Origin: a virus
Lineage: Duplodnaviria > Heunggongvirae > Uroviricota > Caudoviricetes
Length of the DNA: 12,872 bases
Reading direction: 5' to 3' (one strand)
IMG/VR virus record: IMGVR_UViG_2737471845_000023
The translations under genes and the position numbers were made by a program. Shown piece by piece: positions 100 through 8,014 of this stretch. Each line of letters opens with the position of its first letter. Position 1 is the stretch's first letter. The notes below the pieces were generated by a model that was not told the origin of the DNA, ran no database searches, and worked only from the letters and a program-made list of their open reading frames with translations.

Positions 100-3780
<3,681 letters not shown>

Positions 3781-3806
<26 letters not shown>

Positions 3807-4326
3807 TCAGCAACCCCGGTATCAGTTCATCCAGCGCGGCTGCTTTGTTCATGGCTTTGATGATATCCCGTTTCAGGAAATCAACATGTCGGTTTTCCAG
3901 TTCCGGAAAACGCCGCTGCACCGACAGGGGGATCCCGTCGAGAATACTGGCAATTTCACCTGCGATCCGCGACAGCACGAAAGTACAGAATGCGGTTTCC
4001 ACCACTTCAGCGGAGTCTCTGGCATTTTTCAGCTCCTGTGCGTCGGCCTGCGCACGCGTAAGTCGATGGCGTTCGTACTCAATAGTCCCTGGCTGGAGAT
4101 CTGTCTCGCTGGCCTGCCGCAGTTCTTCAACTTCCCGGCGCAGCTTTTCGTTCTCAATTTCAGCATCCCTTTCGGCATACCATCTTATAACGGCGGCAGA
4201 GTCATAAAGCACCTCATTACCCTTGCCACCGCCTCGCAGAACGGGCATTCCCTGTTCCTGCCAGTTCTGAATGGTACGGATACTCGCACCGAAAATGTCA
4301 GCCAGCTGCTTTTTGTTGACTTCCAT
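3781..4326 (-). CDS. Nu1: terminase small subunit (lambda gpNu1), 181 aa
   Basis: 181-aa ORF MEVNKKQLADIFGASIRTIQNWQEQGMPVLRGGGKGNEVLYDSAAV... recognised as lambda Nu1 (winged-helix DNA-binding N-terminus); sits directly downstream of cos. Confidence 0.97.
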
Positions 4327-4560
4327 TGTTCATTCCACGGCCAAAAACAGAGAAAGGAAACGACAGAGGCCCAAAAGCTCGTTTTCAGCACCTGTCGTTT
4401 CCTTTCTTTTCAGGGGGTATTTTAAATAAAAACATTAAGTTACGACGAAGAAGAACGGAAATGCCTTAAACCGGAAAATTTTCATAAATAGCGAAAACCC
4501 GCGAGGTCGCCGCCCCGTAACCTGTCGGATCGCCGGAAAGGACCCGCAAAATGATAATAA
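4327..4560 (-). other. cos: lambda-type cos packaging site: cosB (Nu1-binding R1-R3 repeats), cosN (12-nt cohesive-end sequence at 4504-4515), cosQ-side flank
   Basis: Plus strand 4504-4515 reads AGGTCGCCGCCC, the reverse complement of the lambda left cohesive end GGGCGGCGACCT, with flanks cccgcg / cgtaacctgtcgg matching lambda. Three copies of the Nu1-binding motif CGTTTCC(T/G)TTCT lie between cosN and Nu1 (about 4347-4365 rev, 4394-4409 fwd, 4441-4460 rev). Confidence 0.9.
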
Positions 4561-4714
4561 TTATCATCTGCATGTCACAACGTGCATCTACGCCATCAAA
4601 CCACGTCAAATAATCAATTATGACGCAGATATCGTATTAATTGATCTGCATCAACTTAACGTAAAAACAACTTCAGACAATACAAATCAGCGACACTGAA
4701 TACGGGACAACCTC

Positions 4715-4948
4715 ATGTCAACGAAGAACAGAACCCGCAGAACAACAACCCGCAACATCCGCTTTCCTAACCAAATGATTGAACAAATTAACATCGCTCT
4801 TGAGCAAAAAGGGTCCGGGAATTTCTCAGCCTGGGTCATTGAAGCCTGCCGCCGGAGACTGTGCTCAGAAAAAAGAGTTTCTTCTGAAGCAAACAAAGAA
4901 AAGAGTGACATTACTGAATTGCTCAGAAAACAGGTCAGACCAGATTGA
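4715..4948 (+). CDS. small ribbon-helix-helix (Arc/MetJ/CopG-like) DNA-binding protein, 77 aa; probable YnfO-like cos-proximal ORF
   Basis: ATG ORF with Arg-rich N-terminus MSTKNRTRRTTTRNIRFP followed by a strand-helix-helix pattern (NIRFPNQMIEQINIALEQKG / NFSAWVIEACRRRL). An equivalent ORF is present at the lambda right end in the same position and orientation, as I recall it. SD is weak. Confidence 0.7.
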   Translation: MSTKNRTRRTTTRNIRFPNQMIEQINIALEQKGSGNFSAWVIEACRRRLCSEKRVSSEANKEKSDITELLRKQVRPD

Positions 4949-5005
4949 AGCAATTTAGATAATCGTGCAGACTACGCCCCCTCATATCACATGGAAGGTT
5001 TATCT

Positions 5006-5416
5006 ATGGATCAGGTAGTCATTTTTAAACAAATATTTGATAAAGTTCGAAACGATTTAAACTATCAATGGTTTTATTCTGAGCTAAAACGTCACAATGT
5101 CTCACATTACATTTACTATTTAGCCACAGAGAATGTTCATATTGTATTAAAAAATGATAATACAGTGTTATTAAAGGGCCTAAAAAACATTGTGTCTGTC
5201 AAATTTTCAAAGGATAGGCATCTTATAGAAACGACCTCTAATAAGCTGAAATCCAGAGAGATCACATTTCAGGAATACAGAAGAAACCTTGCTAAAGCAG
5301 GAGTTTTTCGGTGGGTTACAAATATCCACGAACAAAAAAGATATTACTATACCTTTGATAATTCATTACTATTTACTGAAAGCATCCAGAAAACTACACA
5401 GATCTTACCACGCTAA
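5006..5416 (+). CDS. ydfO: DUF1398-family protein YdfO-like, 136 aa (ORF-track start at 4991 is probably an N-terminal over-extension)
   Basis: [49 protein letters not shown]... recognised as Qin prophage YdfO. ATG at 5006 has GGAAGG about 8 nt upstream. AT-rich, low-GC moron-like composition. Confidence 0.85.
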
Positions 5417-5510
5417 ACCATAACGTCCGGCTTCTCTCACTCCTGAGCCGGACTGCATTGGTTTAATAAAAACCATCAACAATTGTGATTTAGATATTCG
5501 GAACCATTCA

Positions 5511-5567: not shown

Positions 5568-5741
5568 TCAGATTAAATTAATCTTGACATCATAGCTTTC
5601 AAGACCCGTCATTTTTTCCCGTGCGGTAAACTGAATACTGGTAACTTCTTTCCCGGTCTTTTTCTTAAGTTCAATAATTTTTTTTGTTATATATTCAGAA
5701 ATATCTGCTTCTGCTTTTGTTTTTAAGTTTTCAATATTCAT
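5568..5741 (-). CDS. gnsB: GnsA/GnsB-family small protein, 57 aa
   Basis: ORF below the track cutoff, translated by hand: MNIENLKTKAEADISEYITKKIIELKKKTGKEVTSIQFTAREKMTGLESYDVKINLI. Matches E. coli GnsB (Qin) as I recall it. SD GAGGAA immediately upstream; an alternative ATG one codon upstream at 5744. Confidence 0.85.
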   Translation of the reverse strand: MNIENLKTKAEADISEYITKKIIELKKKTGKEVTSIQFTAREKMTGLESYDVKINLI

Positions 5742-5912
5742 CATTTCCTCTTTTAGTCTGTTATGACTTTCCAGTTACACAGTAAGTCGATTATATGGTG
5801 CAAACGTGTAAAAGATAAGATGAAACATCGCAATAATCAACATACGATAGTCTAAATTTTACACAAACAGACAAAGAAAATTTTCCTGAATTATCAATAC
5901 AATAGCATCAAA

Positions 5913-6143
5913 TCAACTCAAGAGCCTTATTGCTGCTTCCAGAATTTCTTCTGAAGTAACATGTCGATCCGCGGCTACATAAATGACTTTATGATCTCCG
6001 GTCAGAGATGGAAACCCTGCGGCCATTACAGTAAGGTGTGTTTTTTCGCCATTTGGATATTCACGCATGATGGTGTTAACTCCAGTCATCGCTGGCACTA
6101 CCACTGCAGGTTCTGAGTTAAAAAAAACTATGATTTTTTTCAT
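5913..6143 (-). CDS. small hypothetical protein, probably YnfN-like (76 aa from the ATG at 6143; a 51-aa version from the ATG at 6068 is also possible)
   Basis: ORF MKKIIVFFNSEPAVVVPAMTGVNTIMREYPNGEKTHLTVMAAGFPSLTGDHKVIYVAADRHVTSEEILEAAIRLLS. Position between gnsB and cspI matches ynfN in Qin, and the internal Met gives 51 aa, the size I recall for YnfN. No strong SD at either start. Confidence 0.6.
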   Translation of the reverse strand: MKKIIVFFNSEPAVVVPAMTGVNTIMREYPNGEKTHLTVMAAGFPSLTGDHKVIYVAADRHVTSEEILEAAIRLLS

Positions 6144-6185
6144 GATGTTACCGTAGTATGTGAGTATCCATCGAATAGATACCAA

Positions 6186-6208
6186 GCAAAAAAGCTCCCG
6201 AAGGAGCC
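6186..6208 (-). terminator. intrinsic terminator downstream of cspI (UUCG-tetraloop hairpin plus U-tract)
   Basis: Minus-strand RNA GGCUCC-UUCG-GGAGCU followed by UUUUUUGCUU. Confidence 0.6.
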
Positions 6209-6414
6209 TTCATTTTCACTTTTTTAAATCCAACGACAGACGGCTGGCATTTAAGTATTGTGAAATATTATCAAATGTAATCATCATTGATTTACAAAAG
6301 ATACATTTTGCCCCGAAAGGATTCATGTCAGAAACATCAAAAGATGATGTTCTATACTGGGAACCATGACAACACGGGCATCTAAAGTGAATATGGTTTG
6401 TAATATTGTCTACC

Positions 6415-6627
6415 TCAAAGCGCCACTACATGAACAGCGGCAGGACCTTTAGGTCCGTTCTCAATACCAAATTCAACTTCCTGATTCTCAGTTAATGTTT
6501 TGAAATCGTTGCTCTGAATTGCTGAGAAATGGACAAACACATCTTTGCTGCCATCTTTCGGCGTGATGAAACCAAAACCTTTTTCAGGGTTAAACCATTT
6601 CACTAAACCAGTCATTTTGTTAGACAT
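6415..6627 (-). CDS. cspI: cold-shock protein, CspA family (CspI), 70 aa
   Basis: [70 protein letters not shown] with the RNP1 motif KGFGFI and RNP2-like VFVHF; matches K-12 CspI as recalled. SD AAGGTAATAATTATG. Confidence 0.93.
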
Positions 6628-6990
6628 AATTATTACCTTTTGAAGAAATTAGCCCTTGGGCAGAATGGTCCGAAAAAAAATATCAGAGAGAAAAACCAAC
6701 AAGGAAATCTCAAGAGGTACAAATAATAAAATTATAACAATGACTGCTTCAGATAAATTTGTAACAAACCAGAACACCATTAACGCATGATTAACCACCC
6801 ATAGCAAGGATTACTTTTGTAAAGAAAAACACAGCAATGAAAGAATAGCTTTATTTATTAATAATAACGTGTCATTCTGATTAAGACCTTTTATCTTACC
6901 CTTAAGATTTCAGGAATTTTGGCTCATGGAAGAGTCCTTTTTATTTAAATTTTACATTCCGCGATGTAAATGTTCCGATTTAATATTACC

Positions 6991-8014
<1,024 letters not shown>

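Follow-up and report, generated by a model that had tools for sequence, protein, structure and literature searches.

YnfO, a widespread protein encoded beside the cos site of lambdoid prophages, as a candidate ribbon-helix-helix DNA-binding regulator

A catalogued gene beside cos

The 12,872-nucleotide stretch of Caudoviricetes DNA analysed here (IMG/VR record IMGVR_UViG_2737471845_000023, hereafter the window) is a Qin-like lambdoid prophage of Escherichia coli, and the gene under study, ynfO, lies beside its cos site as a 77-amino acid (aa) open reading frame (ORF) beginning with ATG (Table 1). Positions 4300-5450 recur with 100% identity in many E. coli chromosomes, in which the RefSeq genes are nohA, ynfO and ydfO; the ORF itself bears the RefSeq name ynfO, under a protein accession identical to that of K-12 YnfO, and the two proteins have the same sequence. 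An original prediction for this locus had described such an ORF, with a strand-helix-helix pattern following an Arg-rich tail, as a ribbon-helix-helix (RHH) protein without an assigned function. The ORF is present, and its matches to Pfam DUF3950 (75.6 bits; cut-off 25), NCBIfam YlcI_YnfO_N (NF041551; 36.6 bits; cut-off 30) and PHROG 949 (E 6.3e-34) exclude chance, with the curated cut-offs of the YlcI/YnfO family models being exceeded. The absence of an assigned function is likewise borne out by the literature, in which a search on ynfO and ylcI found none for either gene, and by a 2024 survey of the y-ome that classed ynfO as uncharacterised (PMC11551758).

Both ynfO and its family are therefore already catalogued, as a known family of a known kind. 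What is new here is the fold assignment, the proof of the coding strand, the coordinates in lambda, the survey of genomic contexts, and the links to satellites and terminase fusions. The gene is very widespread: a segment comprising the spacer between cos and ynfO and the first 52 codons (4516-4870) has matches in 4591 (~85%) of 5426 complete E. coli genomes, often in multiple copies (median 2, maximum 13 per genome). When the first 50 codons were compared with diverged copies, the ratio of nonsynonymous to synonymous differences (pN/pS) in the sense frame was 0.07-0.16, with pS reaching 0.46-0.70. Hence ynfO is a real gene of the plus strand, under strong purifying selection, and it is always placed antisense to its neighbours' operon.

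Table 1. Coordinates of ynfO, its predicted structural elements and the neighbouring features of the window
Feature	Positions	Strand	Basis
nohA, Nu1-type small terminase, neighbour across cos	3781..4326	-	ORF, family match, RefSeq
cosN 12-nt cohesive end AGGTCGCCGCCC, reverse complement of lambda GGGCGGCGACCT	4504..4515	-	sequence, lambda alignment
Spacer (199 bp), cohesive end to ynfO ATG	4516..4714	.	alignment with lambda-type phages
Presumed cosQ heptamer AGGACCC, reverse complement of GGGTCCT	4539..4545	-	sequence
Fur-box palindrome ATGATAATAATTATCAT	4551..4567	.	position equals K-12 Fur site at nohA -233
Shadow ORF, 88 aa, TTG start, non-gene	4687..4953	-	no family match, stops in homologues, higher pN/pS
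ynfO coding sequence, 77 aa + stop, YlcI/YnfO family (DUF3950)	4715..4948	+	family matches, RefSeq name, purifying selection
Basic Arg/Thr-rich arm, residues 1-12, MSTKNRTRRTTT	4715..4750	+	sequence; low-confidence, non-regular in AlphaFold2 (AF2) model
Predicted beta-strand RNIRFP, residues 13-18	4751..4768	+	AF2 model, Arc alignment, R16/F17/P18 invariant
Predicted helix A, residues 19-32	4769..4810	+	AF2 model
Predicted turn G-S-G-N-F-S and helix B, residues 33-50	4811..4864	+	AF2 model; span of Pfam DUF3950 model
Variable C-terminal tail, residues 51-77	4865..4945	+	lambda homology stops at mosaic breakpoint near 4862
ydfO (DUF1398), 42 nt past ynfO, same strand	4991..5416	+	ORF, family match, RefSeq

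The coding strand

An 88-aa frame is also open on the minus strand across the whole of ynfO, and the original prediction had named it as the possible true gene. Some depositors do annotate that strand in relatives, as in Pasteurella phage Pmp7, where the product is called a ‘transcriptional repressor’. Against this, the product of 4687-4953(-) has no family match in Pfam, NCBIfam or PHROG searches, and in close homologues the antisense frame is broken by stop codons, whereas the sense frame is always open. The antisense pN/pS is 0.23-0.40 in the first 50 codons, exceeding that of the sense frame, while sense third positions take 16-25 of the 24-30 substitutions in the same comparisons. The sense protein is also kept down to ~30% identity, invariant residues included. 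The homologue stops and the higher pN/pS rule out the minus-strand frame as the true gene, and it is extremely improbable that the real gene is this ORF, or that neither ORF is functional. Rather, the third codon positions of the two frames coincide, and the antisense openness appears to be a wobble-coincident shadow effect, presumably allowed by the absence of Tyr and His from the sense protein and by its low Gln content.

The same shadow frame is called as a gene elsewhere in the family, with long ORFs opposite DUF3950 genes at 4435-5109(-) of locus L011 and 5631-6467(-) of locus L007; the version annotated in Pmp7 is 224 aa long.

A predicted ribbon-helix-helix fold

Judged from its sequence and from structure models, YnfO is likely to adopt an RHH fold. 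Residues 1-13 contain four Arg and one Lys, and the AF2 monomer (mean predicted local distance difference test score, pLDDT, of 65.8) is extended over residues 12-18, helical over 19-32, turns at 33-36 and is helical again from 37; the pattern described in the original prediction can thus be seen, with RNIRFP as the candidate strand behind a basic arm. DSSP assigns zero strands to this model, as expected of a monomer. The order of elements in RHH proteins (a short strand, helix A, a tight turn and helix B, within ~45 residues) is reproduced by the YnfO model, and the same N-terminal pattern recurs in the model of a satellite fusion protein described below, with a helix B of 13 residues. Ten residues are invariant in the family (R16, F17, P18, I25, N36, F37, S38, W40, V41 and C45), and map to the strand, helix A, and the N-cap and core face of helix B.

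Comparisons with known RHH proteins point the same way at the level of the family. Among 27 aligned members, 19 match a HicB-like RHH PHROG (best E 6.7e-6), 11 the Arc-like phrog_228 (best E 1.3e-4), 11 the Arc-like phrog_582 (best E 2.6e-4) and eight phrog_6506 (best E 1.7e-4), with the RHH PHROG matches covering residues 6-58. An hhalign comparison with the Arc family profile gave P 5.6e-4 and a probability of 30%, a weak score because the Arc profile was built from close relatives only; it placed RNIRFP on Arc FNLRWP and helix A on helix A, such that NIRFP aligns with Arc N11-L-R13-W-P15 in the same register. The top Foldseek matches in the PDB were almost all RHH proteins (CdbA, MazE, VapB, Arc, ParD2, NikR and ORF56), all of them non-significant at E >2. 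A BFVD structure search with the YnfO model returned nothing significant, and a PDB sequence search with YnfO returned no matches. Hence the placement of YnfO in the Arc/MetJ/CopG class stands as far as the structural pattern and family-level profiles go, and RHH is the best supported fold, through several lines of which each is weak and none is statistically decisive.

Conservation in lambda and across terminase types

The minus strand of the window corresponds to the conventional plus strand of lambda. The 12-mer at 4504-4515 is the reverse complement of GGGCGGCGACCT, the lambda cohesive end, therefore 4516 corresponds to lambda bp 48502 and the ynfO ATG to lambda 48303, with the gene on the strand opposite the late genes. 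The AGGACCC heptamer at 4539-4545 is presumably cosQ. That the position next to cos is kept in lambda, as stated in the original prediction, was confirmed by tblastn, which aligned YnfO residues 1-54 with J02459 48142-48303(-) at 98% identity. The lambda homologue is 64 aa long (complement 48109-48303). The J02459 annotation has no feature past Rz, and none at the homologue; a hypothetical protein of 64 aa is annotated there in a recent lambda record. Lambda itself thus has the gene, 199 bp short of its right end, and the classic annotation misses it. One lambda record also annotates a 37-aa ORF upstream; that frame is not open in the window.

The window and lambda are near-identical from Nu1 via cos to ynfO codon 50 (...EACRRRL), and unrelated after ~4862, with lambda having ybcW inserted ahead of ybcV past this breakpoint. 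A phage-21-like prophage (L013) retains ~85% identity over cosN, cosQ, the spacer and the gene's 5' half, while cosB and terS, encoding the small terminase subunit (TerS), have been replaced. Hence the spacer, cosN, cosQ and the first 50 ynfO codons form one travelling block in lambda-type phages. YlcI of prophage DLP12 and the lambda ORF are members of the same family, encoded beside cos and near-identical to YnfO through residue 50, the lambda copy ending that stretch ...EACRRRLT and YnfO ...EACRRRLC. They differ from YnfO in the C-terminal tail, being 64 rather than 77 aa long, and in having ybcW downstream on the other strand, whereas ynfO is directly followed by ydfO.

Within the 5' coding region of ynfO there are near-copies of the cosQ-containing AGGACCCGCAAAA (4539-4551), at 4730-4742 (85%) and 4748-4758 (91%), which may have arisen from repeated Thr-Arg codons.

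The distance from the start of the gene to that of terS, on the far side of cos, is 388-394 bp in lambda-type phages, and no other gene there faces the late operon. The genes beyond it vary: ydfO, gnsB and cspI in the window; ybcW, ybcV and bor in lambda; and no morons before the lysis cassette in L013. In Stx-type phages with an HNH gene, a Terminase_2 TerS and a large terminase subunit, TerL (L012, L014 and L163), the gene is monocistronic and on the strand opposite to HNH, with 41 bp separating the two starts. DNA similarity between the window and these HNH-type copies is limited to codons 1-45 (H105), therefore what is conserved is the core of the protein rather than what flanks it. The gene lies beside the packaging module in both of these unrelated terminase types. 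A scan of viral contigs found near-identical Qin-like copies only.

Satellite relatives and terminase fusions

Outside Escherichia, the family was found at 29 species-level loci; 24 of these lie within 5 kb of an integrase gene, and 16 have a primase as well. The gene order is int, alpA, an antisense DUF3950 gene, small genes, DUF4222, a primase and often a capsid gene, and no gene other than DUF3950 runs antisense between alpA/int and the replication operon. This layout is that of satellites resembling phage-inducible chromosomal islands and of capsid-forming satellites. Most of these loci carry 10-bp TGT-N4-ACA palindromes at approximately -29/-37, -75/-84 and -99/-108 from the DUF3950 start, against a chance expectation of ~0.03 per locus. 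Such boxes, in the 120 bp upstream of DUF3950 in the switch region, are spread over many Enterobacterales (L135-L160, L009 and L011). The centres of the boxes track the residues preceding IRF, which are predicted DNA-facing positions: YKG is found with TTAA-type centres, and KKN with GCGC or ACGT. A palindrome of 10 bp has the length that an RHH dimer reads within a single major groove, the MetJ metbox being an example, and the size of the boxes suits one RHH dimer per box.

In one satellite subfamily (P0208, P0190 and P0234-P0238), DUF3950 is fused to a domain matching positions 1-53 of the Terminase_2 model (E 1.6e-11, above cut-off). This C-terminal domain has 64-66% identity to residues 2-54 of the TerS of a Stx-type helper, and 53% to the satellite's own TerS; it is modelled as confidently helical (pLDDT >90), after a disordered linker. 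An E. coli satellite with two DUF3950 genes, one of them a fusion to the TerS N-terminus, was seen in L003 (5590-6363 and 8696-8881) and also in L004-L006. The L003-type satellite directly adjoins a 61-aa N-terminal fragment of a Stx-type prophage terS, which suggests it integrated within the small-terminase gene of its helper.

Promoters, operators and a Fur box beside cos

A consensus promoter scan for ynfO found none on the plus strand of the window, the only match pointing the opposite way and being unconserved. This match is a sigma-70-like GTGACA-16-TATCAT at 4578-4551(-), with 10/12 matches to consensus, that overlaps a Fur box and points via cos to nohA; it is weaker in lambda, and broken by a 7-bp insertion in L013. 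The Fur box, ATGATAATAATTATCAT, lies 6 bp past cosQ, and its centre precedes the nohA start by 233 bp and the ynfO ATG by 156 bp. Chen et al. mapped a 22-bit Fur site at nohA -233 in K-12, with confirmation by gel shift, and cited an earlier in vivo selection of a nohA fragment for Fur binding (PMC2189734). The palindrome is kept in lambda (about bp 48451-48467), L013 and phage 2H10, and is missing from the HNH-type and satellite loci that were scanned. It was therefore rejected as a YnfO operator, being a known Fur site (PMC2189734) that these other family loci lack. The Fur box could control ynfO, the promoter-like site directed toward cos, or both, and the presence of a Fur site next to the lambda packaging site is perhaps not widely appreciated. 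An Rfam search of the region between cos and ynfO found nothing.

Proposed role of YnfO

On balance, we lean towards YnfO being a small sequence-specific DNA-binding regulator of the Arc/MetJ/CopG (RHH) class, most likely a repressor; we infer its dimerisation, DNA binding and repression from the predicted fold and the contexts of its relatives. Two YnfO chains would pair their N-terminal RNIRFP strands into a beta-ribbon reading bases in one major groove, with T12, N14 and R16 as the DNA-facing residues by the Arc register, the Arg/Thr-rich arm gripping the DNA backbone, and helices 19-32 and 37-50 forming the dimer core. The protein would be made from the prophage, or early in infection, because ynfO is a lone gene against the late operon, between the lysis and packaging genes. 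In the satellites, its relatives occupy a regulatory intergenic region beside the palindromic boxes.

The closest parallel drawn here is with Arc of phage P22 (and Mnt; PF03869), likewise a small protein of a phage, with a basic arm at the N-terminus, a strand motif N-[IL]-R-[FW]-P in register, and a helix, a Gly-containing turn and a second helix in order, which is encoded against late transcription, and whose PHROGs are matched by YnfO family members. Unlike Arc, YnfO has no Pfam Arc match and just ~20% identity in the aligned stretch, neither an operator nor a regulated partner such as ant has been found for it, its tail is longer and variable, and its gene lies beside cos rather than in the immunity region. 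RHH antitoxins (the HicB C-terminal domain, KacA, ParD and VapB/MazE) are alike in providing the best profile matches of the family (E down to 6.7e-6) and the top structure matches of YnfO, and in their similar size and variable C-terminus. However, ynfO has no conserved adjacent toxin and no match to a known defence or toxin-antitoxin (TA) model, and the structure scores are below significance. The satellite DUF3950 genes share the domain, its invariant residues and the position of a single antisense gene within a one-directional operon; they differ in lying between alpA/int and a primase operon with TGT-N4-ACA boxes, neither of which applies to the window gene, and in that some carry a TerS helix-turn-helix domain, which the window gene lacks.

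Several observations weigh against YnfO as an RHH regulator. The window protein itself reaches RHH profiles only at E 0.01 and 0.32 and matches neither the Arc nor the RHH models in Pfam, with PF03869 being unmatched by this protein and by all 27 family members at E up to 10. In the satellites, the protein binding the boxes could be AlpA, or an unclassified product of the divergent genes, rather than the DUF3950 protein; these small divergent genes have no recognisable DNA-binding domain. There are no TGT-N4-ACA clusters in the window or lambda, where satellite-type boxes (TGT-N4-ACA, GGTACGTACC) occur at chance frequency and unclustered. Nor was a conserved operator found upstream of ynfO in the window: the repeats ATCTGCAT and the inverted repeats at 4613-4653 were rejected as operators, being conserved neither in lambda nor in K-12 despite an identical protein strand. 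The lambda-type and HNH-type copies similarly have identical strands and unrelated upstream DNA, with no upstream motif common to both.

An alternative, in line with the suggestion in the original prediction that the protein could act at cos, is that YnfO is a packaging-site factor, which would bind near the genome end or act together with the small terminase so that cos recognition is modulated or blocked; it could, for example, protect the prophage cos, exclude same-cos phages, or counter or assist satellites. The fixed position beside the packaging module in two systems (388-394 bp from terS, or 41 bp from HNH) would fit this, as would the restriction of the DNA common to both phage types to the first 45-50 codons, the movement of cosN, cosQ and the 5' half of the gene as a block while cosB and Nu1 are swapped, and the fusions that give satellite DUF3950 proteins a helper-like TerS DNA-binding domain. 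Yet no sequence motif tying the gene to cos was found in both phage types, most of the family's diversity is in satellite regulatory regions far from their terS, and the fusion is equally readable as a regulator borrowing a second DNA-binding domain. YnfO itself has no terminase match in Pfam, NCBIfam or PHROG, the TerS domain being confined to its fused satellite relatives. The defined lambda sites cosQ, cosN and cosB are also not known to extend into this ORF, which counts against such a role. We therefore regard a packaging-site factor as rather unlikely. The broader extension of this idea, that DUF3950 is an unrecognised class of genome-end or packaging-site DNA-binding factors, is a speculation we would rate as unlikely: in lambdoid prophages, lambda among them, YnfO and YlcI, expressed from the lysogenic strand, would bind near the packaging site and control terminase access, and satellites would have captured the domain, in some cases fused to TerS, to interfere with or redirect helper packaging. 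Were it true, such control would amount to cos protection, exclusion of same-cos phages, or defence against satellites.

A second alternative centres on ydfO, with YnfO as an RHH antitoxin or autoregulator paired with YdfO (DUF1398), or as the dedicated repressor of a ynfO-ydfO moron operon, as Arc is for arc-ant. The two genes are 42 nt apart on one strand and are probably co-transcribed in the window, where a scan predicted no terminator between them; an RHH protein with a variable C-terminal tail is typical of antitoxins, and family members match HicB-like profiles. Transcription of ydfO is also strongly condition-dependent (PMC4077768). The pairing is unconserved, however: ybcW intervenes in lambda, and L013, L012, L014, L163 and all satellites lack an adjacent DUF1398 gene. 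PADLOC, which holds defence and TA models, matches neither YnfO nor YdfO, and the YdfO structure 2HH8 is titled only ‘hypothetical protein ydfO’, without a functional assignment. The lack of conserved pairing and of any TA or defence match therefore weakens the case for a dedicated ydfO regulator or antitoxin, which is decidedly unlikely. The suggestion in the original prediction that the protein regulates the adjacent morons ydfO, gnsB and cspI fails as a general role for the same reasons of context, as ybcW intervenes in lambda and there is no same-strand follower gene in L013, L012, L014 or L163.

If YnfO is an RHH regulator, an Arc-type DNA-binding fold would turn an anonymous domain of unknown function into a testable regulator. 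For lambda biology and the conflict between phages and satellites, the points of interest are the constant position by the packaging module, the place in the satellite switch region and the fusion to a terminase domain. If ynfO is only an autoregulated moron, the result is an ordinary one.

Additional observations

Locus L002 has a large terminase flagged as a pseudogene with an internal stop (5582-7507), and its nohA-ynfO-ydfO stretch is 100% identical to 4300-5450 of the window; the large terminase of the window is, unlike that of L002, an intact 641-aa ORF at 1881-3806. Further along the window, the Rfam cspA thermoregulator is matched at 6388-6773(-) with 112.8 bits (gathering score 78), spanning the cspI leader and the beginning of the gene.

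Dozens of assemblies from unrelated taxa (L101-L131), including Streptomyces, Cohnella, Flavobacterium, Pedobacter and metagenome-assembled genomes, carry 98-100% identical lambda right-end sequence, often on ~3.5-kb contigs, and a similar appearance is seen in many noisy ‘ena’ protein variants, which are likewise on ~3.5-kb contigs. The lambda sequence in L101-L131 looks like contamination by control or spike-in DNA.
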